A stretch of DNA of 64,000 nucleotides, taken from Escherichia phage UB. A model generated the notes under the pieces. It was not told the DNA's origin and ran no database searches. It saw only the letters and a list, made by a program, of their open reading frames with translations. A program made the position numbers and the translations under genes. The stretch lies in sequence record MH383160; one strand, written 5' to 3'. Below, piece after piece: positions 18,569-64,000 of this stretch. Within the stretch, counting starts at the first letter, position 1, and each line of letters begins with the position of its first letter.

Positions 18569-18937
18569 CTATCGATTCGGCATATTCTTTCGTAGTCGCA
18601 AGAGAAATTCAACCACTGACCATGTTGTAATGAAGGCAATATAAGTTGCAAGGAATCCAGTAAGAATGAATGCAACCAGCGTACTACCATTTGGGGAATC
18701 AGTTTTAATGCCGATGACACCATCGGCTACAGTGAAACATGTAGCCATTAATGTGTAACCTACGTACAACACAAAGAAAAACTCATTCTCCATTGAAGGA
18801 TAGAAACGGTTAAACACTTTATAAAATTTAAAGTACAGTAGGATTATACCAACAAAGGCATAGAATGTAAACAGTGTTGTTATAATATATGAGATTAGGT
18901 TCAAATTATACATATCAACGCTCCGGTAGATTATCAC
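18569..18937 (-). CDS. small membrane protein (FK.YK.LF.R.YP family)
   Basis: Hydrophobic; motif YFKFYKVFNRFYP shared with two neighbours. Confidence 0.6.
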   Translation of the reverse strand: MIIYRSVDMYNLNLISYIITTLFTFYAFVGIILLYFKFYKVFNRFYPSMENEFFFVLYVGYTLMATCFTVADGVIGIKTDSPNGSTLVAFILTGFLATYIAFITTWSVVEFLLRLRKNMPNR

Positions 18938-57677: not shown

Positions 57678-57967
57678 TAGATTGTTCCTTTCATGAAGTC
57701 TGGAATAACGATTACGATAGGAGGATTATACTCTACATAACCATTTTTTGTCAATAGACTTTTAATATCTGAAATCACATTATCATGCTGTTCAATATCT
57801 TTATCACAAAAGATTTCCAATTCTTTCTGAAACGGTTTTTTAACCGAGATGTTTTGAGTCAGTGTTTGGATTCGCTGTAACATATCAATTGGATCTGGAC
57901 TGAACTCATTACCAACATAAAGAGTACCAGATGCATCTTTTTCTAGCAAGACTTCTAAAATTTTCAT
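57677..57967 (-). CDS. hypothetical protein
   Basis: 96-aa ORF. Confidence 0.55.
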   Translation of the reverse strand: MKILEVLLEKDASGTLYVGNEFSPDPIDMLQRIQTLTQNISVKKPFQKELEIFCDKDIEQHDNVISDIKSLLTKNGYVEYNPPIVIVIPDFMKGTI

Positions 57968-58800
57968 TTCGTATCCTTCAATTTACTAAAGTTTTCTCGT
58001 GTAAATCCAGGAACTGGAAAATATACATCACAGTCAACATCAGGATTCATAATTACCATGTCATTACATATTATATCACGAATTTTACTGCCGTCCACGA
58101 TTTTTTGCATTAAATCATTCCATTTTTTACGAGAAATAACGAATGTACTAATTATACATAAATCATGTCCACGTTTTGAAATATATCCTAGTACTTCATT
58201 ATCGTAAACAACACGTATGGTAACTTTTCCAATTGTAACCCCTCTTACTGGATTAATACTAGTATCTTCAAAAATTAATTCTAATTTAAGTTTACCATTC
58301 GAAATAAGTGATGAAGTATATCTAGAAACCATTTTATCAATTTCTTGAGTCAAATCATCTCTATTTAGATATTCAAATACAGAATAAGTTAATTCGTCTG
58401 CACCTAGTTCTTGGATAGTTGGAAGCTGTGCCACCATATCCAAAGATACAGGTTCGATATATATTCTTTCAATATCAGAAGATTGTACAAATAGACAACC
58501 ATCAGGTGTCGTATCTCTAACAATTTCGGCATAATATGTATAAAGATAAAAAACATTAGACTCTGATGAGTCAGTTTCTACCCAAATCTCAGATTGTTTC
58601 ATTTCATCTTTATGAAGAATTCGTTGAGTAAATCCTATGTAAAAACCAAGATATAAATCATCATCAGTTTCAAACGGATTAAACATCAAATACGGATATT
58701 TGTCAAGGTACTCATTGAACTTACGCTGTACATCTCTATCACAATCCATGATATACTTTAGGAATTCAGAAATGATTATTTTTTCTAATGACATAATCAA
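57964..58800 (-). CDS. hypothetical protein
   Basis: 278-aa ORF. Confidence 0.65.
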   Translation of the reverse strand: MIMSLEKIIISEFLKYIMDCDRDVQRKFNEYLDKYPYLMFNPFETDDDLYLGFYIGFTQRILHKDEMKQSEIWVETDSSESNVFYLYTYYAEIVRDTTPDGCLFVQSSDIERIYIEPVSLDMVAQLPTIQELGADELTYSVFEYLNRDDLTQEIDKMVSRYTSSLISNGKLKLELIFEDTSINPVRGVTIGKVTIRVVYDNEVLGYISKRGHDLCIISTFVISRKKWNDLMQKIVDGSKIRDIICNDMVIMNPDVDCDVYFPVPGFTRENFSKLKDTK

Positions 58801-58994
58801 TCCTCAAGATGCATGTAGTACATAAACATCGCCAACCATATAAAAAACCCGAAACAACGAAGTAAAATATCAATTGTTGGATCTGTCCCACCATTAACTT
58901 GGTAAACGATTACTGGGATTAAAGCAATAGTAATAGATACAGCACATAAGATGAATGCAACAAACACCTCAAACATAAACTTAATCGTTTCCAT
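58797..58994 (-). CDS. small membrane protein
   Basis: Hydrophobic 65-aa ORF. Confidence 0.5.
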   Translation of the reverse strand: METIKFMFEVFVAFILCAVSITIALIPVIVYQVNGGTDPTIDILLRCFGFFIWLAMFMYYMHLED

Positions 58995-59553
58995 TATTAT
59001 CCTTCAATGTGTAGTGTAGTACATCTAAAAAGTTATACATTGATTCATTACGCACAACCTTGATTGTTAAATTACGACAACCCAACATACGTTTGAGGCG
59101 ACGCTTCACCGCAGTTAAATCATGTGTACTATTCGTATACAGACCATTAACCTGACCTGGAACAGTTGGCACATGAAGAATGTAATCATAATTCATTAGT
59201 AAGCGTTGATTATATTTCTTTAATGCTTGCTTGTATTCTGAAATATTTTCAAAGAATGTACAATAACGGTCGTAACGATTCATTTTATTCAAAATTGAAA
59301 TACGAAAAGCGTTACCACTATTCCAATCATCTTCAGTTGGGTTTGGGTTGATATGTGCCATGTTAGCTGTACTGTACCCACCACTTGTGAAAACTTCAGA
59401 ATATCCATTCTCAAAAACATACAATGTTGCTTTGTGGCCTCTGAATTTTTTACGGTACTTTGACAGTACTTGAATGTGATTACGCTTGGACTTGTACATC
59501 TCGTAACCTTCATAATCTGAACTGAATTCACAAATTTTATCAACACCAGCCAT
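58981..59553 (-). CDS. hypothetical protein
   Basis: 190-aa ORF. Confidence 0.6.
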   Translation of the reverse strand: MAGVDKICEFSSDYEGYEMYKSKRNHIQVLSKYRKKFRGHKATLYVFENGYSEVFTSGGYSTANMAHINPNPTEDDWNSGNAFRISILNKMNRYDRYCTFFENISEYKQALKKYNQRLLMNYDYILHVPTVPGQVNGLYTNSTHDLTAVKRRLKRMLGCRNLTIKVVRNESMYNFLDVLHYTLKDNNGND

Positions 59554-59753
59554 TTCGTATATCCTCGTTTAATTAATATAGGAGTATTATACATACTCCA
59601 TTTTCATGTGTCAAGCTTTATAATACGGAAGACTTTTTACTAAAGATTCAGACGTATTATTTTTTACCCATGTACTACCGTTGTCATTAGATACGTATCC
59701 AGTACCATTAATAAATTTACGCATAATACCAGTAAAAATATTAGTATACACCA

Positions 59754-59951
59754 TTACTCAGTATCCTTTGGTTTAGAATGTAAACCATACTTTTCATCAT
59801 AACGATCATAGGTAGTACCATTAGTACTAGCTTTGATGCTTTCAGTACGATTGATTGGTTCAATCTTAACACCACGATAACCAATCTCTTCTTTAAATTG
59901 TTCCCATGATTCACGTAGACTCATTTTAGCCCCTTTTGTTATTTCATACAC
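59754..59951 (-). CDS. hypothetical small protein
   Basis: 65-aa ORF. Confidence 0.5.
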   Translation of the reverse strand: MYEITKGAKMSLRESWEQFKEEIGYRGVKIEPINRTESIKASTNGTTYDRYDEKYGLHSKPKDTE

Positions 59952-60084
59952 TCACGTAGGTCAATCTTTTCTACTGACCCACCGAGTACTAGATAGTGAA
60001 AATTAGAATCTTTGTTTGCCATATTCAAAAGATCTGCTTTCTGTTGAAGCGTAAAGCGTGAAGTACTGTTACGTACTGGCATAG

Positions 60085-60528
60085 TTACTCCTTAAAGTAG
60101 ATATCACGAATTTGTTTAATCATCTCTAACTCTTGAAGTCCTATCATACCAAAGTCTTCTTGTATTGTCAACTGCTGAAAGTACATTTCTTCTAAATTAT
60201 TGTACGGAATCTCAACAAGATTCAAAGGCTCACTTTCCACACGATAAATTGTATCTTGTACATCATGTTTTTCGATATGAATACTAAATGTATCTTTTTG
60301 AATTCTAAATTTATAAAATGTTTGATTTGTTGTAAACAAACCAACTTTAGGATGGAATCCCATTTGAATACACAAACAATCTTCATCCTTATATTTCAAG
60401 TATATAGCTTTTGACGTTGCTAGTACTTTAGATTTTGGGAAATAAAAATCACCCATCAGCTTCTGACGTTTCCAGTCCTCATATACAACTGGATGCTTAA
60501 CCTTCTTCAATTGGTGCAGTACTGTCAT
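60085..60528 (-). CDS. paralog-family protein (YFQQLTIQEDFGMIGLQEL motif)
   Basis: Shared C-terminal motif. Confidence 0.6.
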   Translation of the reverse strand: MTVLHQLKKVKHPVVYEDWKRQKLMGDFYFPKSKVLATSKAIYLKYKDEDCLCIQMGFHPKVGLFTTNQTFYKFRIQKDTFSIHIEKHDVQDTIYRVESEPLNLVEIPYNNLEEMYFQQLTIQEDFGMIGLQELEMIKQIRDIYFKE

Positions 60529-60908
60529 AGTTTTTTCCAGTCCAATGAATCGAAATCGATTTGTTCAGGATTATCAACAGCGACAACTCGTGCATTATGA
60601 AGAGTTTCAAAGTAGCCGTTCCACGGTGTACGTACTGGAATTTTTTCATCTCCAATTTTTACAAAGAAAGAGAATTCACATGACATTGGATCAAACCATT
60701 CTTTATGTTTGGCTTCATCGATTATTGTCGCACGTTCGTTACTATATGCATCATCGAGTTTCTTAAAGAATACCCAATGCTCTTTCAAAGACTGTAATGC
60801 TACAACTGCCTCATCCTTTGATTCCCATTGAACATCCAATGTATTGGTAACTGAATCTTCAGTTTCAGTGTCCCCTGTAGTGTAATGTACTTCAATGCTG
60901 TATTTCAT
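60525..60908 (-). CDS. hypothetical protein
   Basis: 127-aa ORF. Confidence 0.55.
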   Translation of the reverse strand: MKYSIEVHYTTGDTETEDSVTNTLDVQWESKDEAVVALQSLKEHWVFFKKLDDAYSNERATIIDEAKHKEWFDPMSCEFSFFVKIGDEKIPVRTPWNGYFETLHNARVVAVDNPEQIDFDSLDWKKL

Positions 60909-61363
60909 TAATCATCGCCTTTTAGTAATTTACAAATTTCAATCATATGATAATAACATGTATTCCAAAATTGTCCATTAGTACTTCCAACATCATGCAC
61001 AGTACTTTGTTGGAAAACATATTCATCGTTGAACATCATTTTAATATCATCAATGTAAAATTCTGGTTTTGAATCATTATTGTATTCAATACTCGTTTCA
61101 CCATCTGGATCAAGTGAAATTGATGATATGTCGTGAATTCCTCTCGGATTTGTTGGATAAATTCTCAACGTAAGAGGATAGAAGTCTGGATCGGTTTCAT
61201 AAGTATATTCGATTATGTAATAACCATCACCAGTAATTGATTGATATTTAAATGTAGTTTCAATTGAATTTGAGATGTTAAATCCCAGTTTCTTTATCTC
61301 ATCTACATGAGATAATATTTTATGTAAAGTTCCTAAAACATGAATCAAATTATCAATTTTCAT
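60908..61363 (-). CDS. paralog-family protein (VFQQSTVHDVG motif)
   Basis: Shared C-terminal motif. Confidence 0.6.
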   Translation of the reverse strand: MKIDNLIHVLGTLHKILSHVDEIKKLGFNISNSIETTFKYQSITGDGYYIIEYTYETDPDFYPLTLRIYPTNPRGIHDISSISLDPDGETSIEYNNDSKPEFYIDDIKMMFNDEYVFQQSTVHDVGSTNGQFWNTCYYHMIEICKLLKGDD

Positions 61364-61902
61364 TTACGAACCTTTGAAAAGTTTAGTTTAAAAGATTTAC
61401 CAAATTCCATTGTAGCTTTACCCAGATTGTTAATATTTTCCTTTAACATTTCTTGCATCTTATTCATACTTTCAATCCAAGCTTCTTCTTCGATACGAAG
61501 AATTGGTCGCAATCGTTCCTGAATATCGATAAAACGTGTATTGAGTTCTACTAATGATTCATATGTGAAATCTTTCATGTCGATAATAGTACTTCGTTGA
61601 AAGAATTCTTCTTCGGATAAATTACTTAAAATGATTTTATCACGACCAATAGATAATGTCAATTCATCATCTTTATTTTTTTTAATTACAATACTAACAG
61701 GTGTTTTTAATGTAATGCAAATATCATGATTATTAAATGTTTCAGTTTGGTTTGACATTCTGAATTGAAGTTTCCCAGATAAAGCATGTACTGGTGATGG
61801 TTTCTTTTTACCAGTAATAACATCTTCCCATGAATCGAGAATATTATTAATAATTTTAACATAAGGAATTGGCATATATGCACCTATGAAAAATCCACGC
61901 AA
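61360..61902 (-). CDS. paralog-family protein (EEEFFQRSTIIDMKDFTYESL motif)
   Basis: Shared motif. Confidence 0.6.
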   Translation of the reverse strand: MRGFFIGAYMPIPYVKIINNILDSWEDVITGKKKPSPVHALSGKLQFRMSNQTETFNNHDICITLKTPVSIVIKKNKDDELTLSIGRDKIILSNLSEEEFFQRSTIIDMKDFTYESLVELNTRFIDIQERLRPILRIEEEAWIESMNKMQEMLKENINNLGKATMEFGKSFKLNFSKVRK

Positions 61903-61917
61903 TGCGTGGATTTGTAA

Positions 61918-62448
61918 TTATTCAAGTATAGTAATTTCAATTAAACGAATTTCGATAAACTCGTTTTCAGTTTCCCATGACGTGCCAAATTTCTTTTCAA
62001 GTTCAGATTTCACATCACTTTTAAATTTTCCCATAGTATTAGGAATAATTTGTTTGGTTAATTTGTCGTAACCACAATAAAACATAGGTTTCTCCCTTCG
62101 AGATATTAGCTGAACAAAATCTTTTGGATATGCAGGTATGTTATGCATCACTTCATGAATACACTCAGTACTTGAATCTTGTACTTTGTACATTACATTA
62201 AGTTTACCTCTGAAATTTGCGGTCATATCAACAATAGTTCCTTTACCCGATTTAAGTAAAGTTCCATTCTTTGAATGAGAGCAATAAAATACCTCATCAC
62301 CAATATTAGGATAATACAAATTAAATTCTAATTCAGATTTTACAGCCAGCCGTTTGAAACTTTCTGTACGTTTTATATAAGTTTGGTATTTGTTTATGTT
62401 CAAAAGAATATCTCTCTTAGTAAATGTGATATAACTGGCATAGTCCAT
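61918..62448 (-). CDS. hypothetical protein
   Basis: 176-aa ORF; 5' end overlaps methyltransferase 3' end so start may be downstream. Confidence 0.55.
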   Translation of the reverse strand: MDYASYITFTKRDILLNINKYQTYIKRTESFKRLAVKSELEFNLYYPNIGDEVFYCSHSKNGTLLKSGKGTIVDMTANFRGKLNVMYKVQDSSTECIHEVMHNIPAYPKDFVQLISRREKPMFYCGYDKLTKQIIPNTMGKFKSDVKSELEKKFGTSWETENEFIEIRLIEITILE

Positions 62449-63260
62449 CCATTCCCAAGCATTTTGTATGCTTGTGTCTTACTAGACACTTTAAAGAAAT
62501 CTTCAGGAACACCCTGTAATTTACAACATTCTACTACACTTAAGTGTCTATAGTCAATATTTCTTTTGCCATTCTCTAATAGATATTGACGACTGATCAC
62601 TGGGTCACGAAACACCAATTGTCGTCTGGATTTATTAAAGTACTGGTTACAATCACCACCTTTAAAATAGTTAGCATCTATACAGTACGAAGCGGTTCTG
62701 TCAGTGTACCAACCATCTTCAATAATATCTTGAAGTTTAGGTGCATTGGATAATGCAGGTGGTATAAAAAGCTTATCAGTACTGTACCAGTAATATCTCT
62801 GCCTGAAGTGAGGCGTATAATGCTGGGAGTTTATCAGTACTGGCGTGATTCCTAAAATACTATTAATGTATTCTTTGAAATCTTCTTTCATTTTAACATT
62901 TTCAAACAGAAATTTCAAGTTAGGATTAAGACTTTTGATATGATCAAAAATTTCAACCATTACTAAAAATAACTGCCCACGTATATCATTTAAACCACCC
63001 TGTTTACCTGCAACTGACCAGGCTTGGCATGGGAAACCACCCATTAATAAATCTATTTTGTCCCACTCAATATCCCATTCTCTCCACTTAGTTACATCAC
63101 CCAATTGGATAATATCAGGAAAGTTAGATTGAGATTCAGCTATTGCGTACTTATCAATTTCGGATGAATAATATTTTTCAACTGGGATACCAGCATCTTG
63201 CAATGCCATATATCCCACACTCATTCCATTAAAAAGAGAAAGTACTCGGATAGGTTTCAT
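62400..63260 (-). CDS. DNA (cytosine-5)-methyltransferase
   Basis: Motif I LSLFNGMSVG, motif IV GGFPCQAWSVAG, ENV, RQRYYW, motif X-like KMLGNGWTMPVISHL. Confidence 0.85.
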   Translation of the reverse strand: MKPIRVLSLFNGMSVGYMALQDAGIPVEKYYSSEIDKYAIAESQSNFPDIIQLGDVTKWREWDIEWDKIDLLMGGFPCQAWSVAGKQGGLNDIRGQLFLVMVEIFDHIKSLNPNLKFLFENVKMKEDFKEYINSILGITPVLINSQHYTPHFRQRYYWYSTDKLFIPPALSNAPKLQDIIEDGWYTDRTASYCIDANYFKGGDCNQYFNKSRRQLVFRDPVISRQYLLENGKRNIDYRHLSVVECCKLQGVPEDFFKVSSKTQAYKMLGNGWTMPVISHLLREIFF

Positions 63261-63312
63261 ATAAAATCCTTTTTATATTGTTAAGGTACTATAATATATT
63301 ATAGCATCTTAT

Positions 63313-63603
63313 TTAGAAATCTTCCAAACTTTTTTCATCACACCATCGTGATGTACAGATGATTGCAGATGCCAGAATTGAAGCACTTGCACGTCCTCCA
63401 CCGAGTAAGTACTGGCTAATTACGCCAATCATATTGAACACTTTATCATACTCGGTTAGTTGTTCAAAACCTTTCTTCCAATGCTGATATTCTTCTTCTG
63501 TGACATTAAACTCACCATCAAGTTCCTTTAAAATCTTTTTAAGCACAGCACTATGTTCACTCATCATCATCTCCATATCGTTCGTCATAAAAATCATCAT
63601 CAC
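63313..63603 (-). CDS. hypothetical protein
   Basis: 96-aa ORF. Confidence 0.5.
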   Translation of the reverse strand: MMMIFMTNDMEMMMSEHSAVLKKILKELDGEFNVTEEEYQHWKKGFEQLTEYDKVFNMIGVISQYLLGGGRASASILASAIICTSRWCDEKSLEDF

Positions 63604-63642
63604 GATCTAATGGTTCTTTTGGCTTTTCAGACATATATTTCC

Positions 63643-63903
63643 TCACATGGTAAAGGTATTATCACCATCCATATCTTCATCAGTTGCTTCAGCTAATGTC
63701 TTGATTGTAAGTAATCCACGCTTCACGTACAACATGAAGACCTTTTCATAATTACCAAACATAATCTCAGGTGACATGTAATTCTCTGTTACAATGACGA
63801 TTGGACGGCCCTGTGAAAGCATACGAAACATAGTACGATATTTGTCAAATGTGCGAAATTCATCCATGTTCATCATGTGGCGTTTACGAACTACTTTAGT
63901 CAT
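63643..63903 (-). CDS. hypothetical protein
   Basis: 86-aa ORF. Confidence 0.5.
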   Translation of the reverse strand: MTKVVRKRHMMNMDEFRTFDKYRTMFRMLSQGRPIVIVTENYMSPEIMFGNYEKVFMLYVKRGLLTIKTLAEATDEDMDGDNTFTM

Positions 63904-63917
63904 CTTAATACCTTTAG

Positions 63918-64000
63918 TTAATTGAACTCTACTTCTGGATAATGATTATAGAACATCTCACGAACTGCGTCAAGATGTTCTTGAAATTGTTTTATATCTT
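63918..64000 (-). CDS. 3' end of a minus-strand gene whose start lies beyond the window
   Basis: Open frame from window edge to stop at 63918-63920 (...EMFYNHYPEVEFN*). Confidence 0.4.
   Translation of the reverse strand, partial: DIKQFQEHLDAVREMFYNHYPEVEFN

Follow-up and report, generated by a model that had tools for sequence, protein, structure and literature searches.

The 64,000-nucleotide stretch of Escherichia phage UB analysed here (sequence record MH383160), referred to below as the window, carries on its minus strand a gene predicted to encode a stand-alone C5-cytosine DNA methyltransferase. The gene, its catalytic motifs and its recognition region are as follows; all positions are those of the window, and the motifs were read from the translation.

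62400..63260, minus strand: coding sequence of the C5-cytosine DNA methyltransferase, 286 amino acids (aa), ATG start; supported by the list of open reading frames (ORFs), PF00145, TIGR00675, the identity to phage PBECO4 and an AlphaFold2 model
63213..63233, minus strand: motif I, binding S-adenosylmethionine (SAM), F10-G16, LFNGMSVG, a DNMT3-type variant of FxGxG (DNMT3 counterpart LFDGIATG), also seen in the alignment with DNMT3C/3A
63024..63038, minus strand: motif IV, GFPCQ (G75-F-P77-C78-Q79), with the codon of the catalytic Cys78 at 63027-63029
62895..62903, minus strand: motif VI, E120-N121-V122
62796..62804, minus strand: motif VIII, R153-Q-R155
62556..62783, minus strand: short target-recognition region, approximately residues 160-235
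62445..62456, minus strand: motif X, G269-N270-G271-W272 (GNGWTMPVISHL; DNMT3 counterpart GRSWSVPVIRHL), also seen in the DNMT3 alignment

The first-pass annotation had described this gene as a C5-methyltransferase with all hallmark motifs, and the description was borne out by the exact ORF, the motifs, the profile matches and the AlphaFold2 model. The 286-aa protein matched PF00145 (DNA_methylase) with an E-value of 7.5e-38 and 131.2 bits (cutoff 22) and the TIGR00675 dcm profile with 119.2 bits (cutoff 100.65), while the PHROG family phrog_116, 'DNA methyltransferase', was matched over the full length (residues 1-285, E=5.3e-60). A single PF00145 domain was found, without PWWP or ADD domains. 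The product was 100% identical to PBECO4 gp416 (YP_009150730.1), which is labelled 'DNA methyltransferase' in GenBank, and other records use 'DNA-cytosine-methyltransferase' or 'modification methylase HaeIII'. The data confirm, at the level of the sequence, that the product is a complete and intact C5-cytosine DNA methyltransferase; the observation was correct, yet the gene was already annotated in the databases. Methyl transfer to the C5 position of DNA cytosine is the predicted activity, supported indirectly through the orthologue of phage RaK2.

Across 78 aligned homologues, F10, G12, P77, C78, E120-N121-V122, R153, R155, G269 and N270 were invariant, and S14, G16, G271 and W272 were at least 90% conserved. 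The core of the recognition region read S-Y-C193-I-D-A-N-Y198-x-K200-G-G ... Q206-Y ... K210-S-R-R-Q214. The AlphaFold2 model (mean predicted local distance difference test score, pLDDT, 93.8; predicted template modelling score 0.91) displayed the fold of class I methyltransferases and a small domain for DNA recognition, and the top 50 Foldseek matches in the Protein Data Bank (PDB) were all catalytic domains of DNMT3A/B/C, with a template modelling score of about 0.8. A sequence search of the PDB likewise placed the catalytic domains of DNMT3C/3A/3B first, aligned end to end with E-values of about 1e-23, followed by M.HaeIII and M.HhaI at ~1e-17. The catalytic domain is of the DNMT3 type: the recognition region is very short in both, and motif X and the uncommon motif I are alike as well. 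The model is compact, its recognition domain is minimal, and among solved structures it superposes best on the DNMT3A/B catalytic domain. The methyltransferase resembles DNMT3 but is a single-domain phage protein and not a member of the DNMT3 family. In the HMMER alignment, the family-invariant K200 (loop N-Y-x-K-G-G) lay opposite the basic K/R of T-T-K/R-S-N, the DNMT3 loop that reads the CpG guanine in DNMT3A/B complexes; we take this alignment as a lead only. The motif IV loop GFPCQAWSVAGKQ is presumably bacterial, M.HhaI-like in sequence.

The gene was widely kept among jumbo phages. Bases 61000-64000 were 100% identical to Escherichia phage PBECO4 (Asteriusvirus, a lytic jumbo myovirus of 348 kb) and 96-99% identical to about 30 related jumbo phages of E. 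coli and Salmonella. The methyltransferase itself was at least 99% identical in 20 phage records, and orthologues 64-78% identical were present in jumbo phages of Erwinia, Xanthomonas, Pectobacterium, Cronobacter and Klebsiella. One C5-methyltransferase-like locus was found per genome, even at E<=0.01, and the RaK2-like jumbo phages (Asteriusvirus, Alcyoneusvirus, GAP32, CBB and the Erwinia and Xanthomonas relatives) kept the gene as a single copy. Relatives at E<=0.01 occurred in 1,327 phage records, and phrog_116 is a very large family, carried mostly by phages, with a patchy distribution over unrelated ones. Elsewhere in the window (20000-44999), identity to PBECO4 was only 98.2% at 94% coverage, and the best matches there were JP4 and SP27 (98.7%). 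With 100% identity at its right end and 98.2% in its middle, the window is, on this comparison, either mosaic or closely related to the PBECO4 record.

The ratio of nonsynonymous to synonymous change (pN/pS) of the methyltransferase was 0.19 against TH47 and 0.26 against RaK2, which by sequence comparison indicates a gene under purifying selection. An orthologue interrupted at the active site was also found:

7442-9328 of the TH47 stretch, minus strand: intein-bearing methyltransferase orthologue of Escherichia virus TH47

The TH47 intein is an in-frame insertion of 342 aa with a LAGLIDADG homing endonuclease, located directly before the catalytic Cys78 (…GGFP|CFTEGT…VVHN|CQSWS…); Pfam matched Hint_2 (E=1e-9) and LAGLIDADG_3 (E=3.8e-7), both above cutoff. 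The gene was split at residue 78 in four more Asteriusvirus genomes (JNE01, ph0011, UE-S1 and A4), while the allele of the window was without the intein. Inteins typically occupy conserved active sites of genes that remain in use, and the insertion at precisely Cys78 in five orthologues fits this pattern. The protein might nevertheless be inactive, or act on RNA in the manner of Dnmt2 instead of on DNA. This is extremely unlikely, given that the catalytic residues are all intact, that the gene is under purifying selection, and that DNMT3 and bacterial DNA methyltransferases scored as well as or better in the comparisons. The tripeptide CFT, described as a signature of Dnmt2 (PMC3227630), was found nowhere in the 286 aa, so that the protein does not fit a Dnmt2 or tRNA-Asp methyltransferase; RaK2 virion DNA, moreover, was reported as methylated (PMC3622015).

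The closest experimental information comes from RaK2. Its gp194 is the orthologue, 64-66% identical, with a matching recognition core (SYCIDANYxKxG...QY..KSRRQ); RaK2 has no other locus resembling a C5 methyltransferase, even at E<=0.01. According to the RaK2 paper, only methylation-insensitive enzymes cut RaK2 virion DNA, and bisulfite sequencing gave methylated CpG, both as the authors' data not shown; citing these digests and the bisulfite result, the authors proposed protective methylation for gp194 (PMC3622015). The resistance to methylation-sensitive enzymes reported there would mean that the virion DNA carries a modification that matters for restriction. It also speaks against a methylation that is mainly non-defensive, whether for timing of phage transcription, packaging or replication, for discrimination of phage from host DNA by a phage nuclease, or for methylation of host DNA. 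Orphan methyltransferases can be regulatory, which is also discussed in PMC8256090, and the phage already avoids most restriction sites, which lowers the need for protective methylation. For a non-defensive role no specific evidence was found, however, and the patchy spread of the family over unrelated phages is as expected of an accessory counter-defence gene; such a role is unlikely. Self-methylation as protection from restriction is the most reasonable reading.

At synonymous third positions of the window, C was about half as frequent before G, whatever the 5' base, and TpG/CpA was in excess (1.24 in the window versus 1.01 in T5). Synonymous CpG depletion together with TpG/CpA over-representation is the classical footprint of deamination of 5-methylcytosine in CpG. 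The synonymous CpG effect in T5 was real but weaker than in the jumbo phage, which is set apart from T5 only by the TpG/CpA excess and the stronger synonymous CpG depletion. Among IMG/VR contigs, those whose enzyme had the same recognition core showed a ratio of observed to expected (o/e) CpG of 0.69, versus 0.91 for other cores (p=4e-5, per contig), and their TpG/CpA was higher too.

Several points weigh against a CpG-marking, self-protecting enzyme. The statement on methylated CpG in RaK2 stands as 'data not shown', and a literature search for methylome data on any Asteriusvirus found none. The evidence for CpG from mutation patterns is weak, as T5, without a known C5 methyltransferase, had the same overall CpG o/e (0.77). 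The association of recognition core and CpG fell to p=0.05 once related contigs were collapsed by a crude de-replication. The CpG-specific M.MpeI was no closer to the enzyme than the GCGC-specific M.HhaI, and a DNMT3-like fold does not establish the same specificity. Dense CpG methylation should also make the DNA a target for McrBC, McrA and Mrr, yet E. coli K-12 MG1655 was the isolation host of phage Sharanji, whose enzyme is one residue different; the phage would need a countermeasure. Finally, the small ORFs that flank the gene were without detectable homology, and a novel nuclease among them therefore remains conceivable.

Three other approaches to the target site were set aside. In a mutation-spectrum test, the window was aligned to SP27, ECO103 4-12-1 and TH47, and transitions were scored by context at all sites and at synonymous sites. 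CpG was hypermutable (~two-fold), but the control comparison of T5 with PYC03 also gave a roughly two-fold excess of transitions at CpG, which counts against the CpG reading as well; the test was therefore dropped as evidence of methylation. An analysis of the bases flanking CpG (NCGN) was uninformative, as ACGT was not depleted and the same was seen in T5. A comparison of palindrome avoidance between recognition-core classes gave no clear protected site: IMG/VR contigs with the same core (C[IL]DANYxK) avoided CCWGG far less than others (o/e about 0.78 versus 0.33-0.42), the contigs not being independent, but CCWGG was without signal in Asteriusvirus.

On balance, we put a probability of roughly 0.6 on the reading that the gene encodes a predicted active, stand-alone, SAM-dependent cytosine-C5 methyltransferase that marks phage DNA against restriction, with a short CpG-containing sequence as the likely target. 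A short target that contains CpG would be the best-supported guess, and a fairly probable one; plain CpG as the target is plausible, at rather less than even odds. It is a more tentative proposal that the enzyme, with the large phage family sharing SYCIDANYxKGG, is a natural minimal methyltransferase of the CpG dinucleotide. With its 286 aa and one domain, it would then be what corresponds in viruses to the catalytic domain of DNMT3. No smaller CpG methylase would be known, and the enzyme would be a candidate for a close prokaryotic or viral relative of the ancestral DNMT3 lineage.

The first-pass annotation had also suggested that the target could relate to the abundant palindrome AGTACT. The palindrome was present in 173 copies in the 64 kb, versus 21.7 expected from base composition and 134 expected under a Markov model. 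It was thus in ~8-fold excess over base composition and evenly spaced, at about 1 per 370 bp (e.g. 239, 846 and 1067). Copies fell in all codon phases (64/35/46 in phases 0/1/2), with 28 more in intergenic DNA or at ORF edges, and four lay inside the methyltransferase gene. AGTACT was kept between the window and TH47 in 81% of cases, versus 51% for random hexamers, which points to selection on the DNA itself. GTAC was the most over-represented 4-bp palindrome (o/e 2.4). Some AGTACT copies are the stems of terminator hairpins, GCCAGTACTnnnnACTGGCTTTTC; repeated terminator-like hairpins of the form GCCAGTACT-nnnn-ACTGGC, followed by TTTTC and with the stem on the AGTACT motif, were located at ~843-870, 3298-3325 and 5729-5756 on the plus strand.

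Methylation of the C of AGTACT (or GTAC) by the enzyme would agree with a palindrome that is real and under selection, with a GTAC that is clearly not avoided, and with the presence of both the enzyme and the AGTACT excess in RaK2 as in the window (46 copies in RaK2 versus 6.9 expected). Other carriers of the family, however, did not show the enrichment: a set of 64 further phage contigs, each 9 kb or longer and with a homologue of the enzyme, had 108 copies, versus 316 expected, and contigs with the same recognition core depleted AGTACT as much as those with other cores (o/e 0.26 versus 0.29). The RaK2 bisulfite statement names CpG and not AGTACT (PMC3622015). At synonymous sites, the A-C-T context had the highest retention of C among the 16 contexts, which is the opposite of decay by 5-methylcytosine and gives no sign of C loss, although selection for AGTACT confounds this measure. 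AGTACT as the target is very improbable and was not borne out. The enrichment is a trait of the phage clade (Asteriusvirus and RaK2), and a tie between AGTACT and the enzyme is not supported. Of the earlier interpretation, the orphan C5-methyltransferase and self-protection as the most reasonable reading were retained, while the AGTACT link was given up.

The gene sits within a long run of small minus-strand ORFs, and its immediate surroundings contain the following further features.

61918..62448, minus strand: downstream ORF of 176 aa (ORF list), sharing 49 nt with the 3' end of the methyltransferase gene
63268..63272, minus strand: Shine-Dalgarno-like AAGGA, 7 nt upstream of the ATG, by direct reading of the sequence
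63298..63327, minus strand: candidate sigma-70-like promoter, TTGGAA, 18-nt spacer, TATAAT, with an extended -10 TG, from a consensus scan

No nuclease was recognisable among the ten flanking ORFs (57964-63903), and the restriction and defence models of PADLOC gave no match there. Pfam gave no significant match on the eight nearest ORFs (60085-63903), and the PHROG matches of the ten were to families of unknown function only. The claim that no restriction endonuclease adjoins the gene thus held within the limits of detection of these searches. A cognate endonuclease as in a Type II restriction-modification system was not found, and the full-length match to phrog_116, in a lytic jumbo phage with no partner nuclease recognised, fits a phage orphan methyltransferase; 'orphan' status is supported within the limits of such methods. 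The same eight ORFs, having no significant Pfam domain, included no recognisable TET/JBP dioxygenase or glycosyltransferase; a published survey found no TET/JBP in jumbo phages (PMC7824862). An inference from neighbours in bacterial genomes was dropped: the homologues there were at most 61% identical, and the recognition core was present in only 1 of 36 called methyltransferases, so that nucleases beside them are uninformative for the phage enzyme.

The overlapping 176-aa ORF raises the question of an unrecognised nuclease that would pair with the enzyme, as a phage restriction-modification module or one that degrades host DNA. The 49-nt overlap suggests translational coupling, and the ORF gave no match in Pfam, PADLOC or the PDB, which leaves a nuclease role conceivable. 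Its homologues, however, are confined to Asteriusvirus (4 clusters), whereas the methyltransferase is far wider and the RaK2 orthologue has neighbours that differ from those at 62400-63260. No conserved partner emerged from 80 IMG/VR phage loci that carry a homologue: no neighbour family occurred in more than 17 of the 80, and the commonest were integrase and a second methyltransferase. The AlphaFold2 model of the 176-aa ORF (pLDDT 48.6) was too poor to interpret or to be tested for a nuclease fold. A GCGC-cutting nuclease encoded by the phage would lead one to expect a total absence of GCGC, as described below, but a genome free of GCGC needs no GCGC methylase. Pairing with a hidden nuclease is a highly improbable account of the gene.

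The tetranucleotide GCGC occurred 0 times in the window, versus about 51 expected. It was also at 0 in every other Asteriusvirus stretch compared and in 21 kb of RaK2 (11 expected). Neither T5 nor other phages with members of the methyltransferase family showed a depletion of it. Candidate causes are an extreme avoidance of restriction or a phage-encoded, GCGC-specific nuclease. In the T5 record, the major single-strand nick is annotated at 18574-18575 with the consensus Pu|GCGC, which contains the same tetranucleotide; this may be coincidence. In the window, CGCG, CCGG, GGCC and GATC were depleted 2-4 fold (2-9 fold with CCSGG included), almost all G+C-rich 6-bp palindromes were missing, and 28 of the 64 6-bp palindromes were at zero copies. 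The missing G+C-rich palindromes and depleted 4-mers indicate a strong, genome-wide avoidance of restriction sites.

Under the preferred reading of protective self-methylation, the gene, within the run of short minus-strand ORFs, would be expressed early in infection from a host-type promoter of its own. The candidate promoter has 10 of 12 consensus matches plus the TG and lies ~40 nt upstream of the start codon; the scan overall was not enriched over shuffled sequences, and the element stays a candidate only. In the CBB paper, the authors interpret the corresponding region of CBB as early genes. The enzyme would then act on phage DNA as it replicates, methylating a short site that probably contains CpG, and progeny genomes would enter the next host already marked, resisting methylation-sensitive restriction enzymes. 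Protective methylation may in this way complement a second anti-restriction strategy, the purging of restriction sites from the genome.

Taken alone, the finding of the methyltransferase matters little, as it restates an existing GenBank annotation and a common form of phage counter-defence, and the protective reading had been proposed earlier for the RaK2 orthologue. If the target were plain CpG, the enzyme would offer a compact, 286-aa tool for methylation footprinting and epigenome editing, and a concrete viral relative of the DNMT3 catalytic domain. The absence of GCGC and the eight-fold excess of AGTACT may outvalue the methyltransferase itself; the missing GCGC and the selected AGTACT point to unexplained, sequence-specific pressures on the 350-kb genomes of RaK2-like jumbo phages.

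Compared with known systems, RaK2 gp194, 121Q gp91, PBECO4 gp416 and the genes of GAP32 and CBB are the same gene, of the same length, with the same recognition core and in single copy, 100% identical in PBECO4 and 64-78% in the others. From RaK2-like orthologues the window enzyme does not differ materially, except that those of TH47, UE-S1, ph0011, JNE01 and A4 carry the intein at Cys78 and the window allele does not. Phage orphan C5 methyltransferases (phrog_116) likewise stand alone with no cognate nuclease and are presumed to be anti-restriction; such orphans were reviewed by Murphy et al. 2013, as cited in PMC8256090. For the phage C5 methyltransferases characterised in that paper, GpC is the preferred target and there is coupling to TET enzymes, whereas the window enzyme is not coupled to TET. 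DNMT3A/3B/3C share with the window enzyme the fold of the catalytic domain and a similar motif I and motif X, but they have PWWP and ADD domains and the partner DNMT3L, all of which the window enzyme lacks in its viral context. M.SssI and M.MpeI (CpG) and M.CviPI (GpC) are orphan enzymes with very short targets, and the minimal recognition domain, taken with the CpG statement of the RaK2 paper, would imply a dinucleotide specificity of the M.SssI/M.MpeI/M.CviPI type for the phage enzyme.

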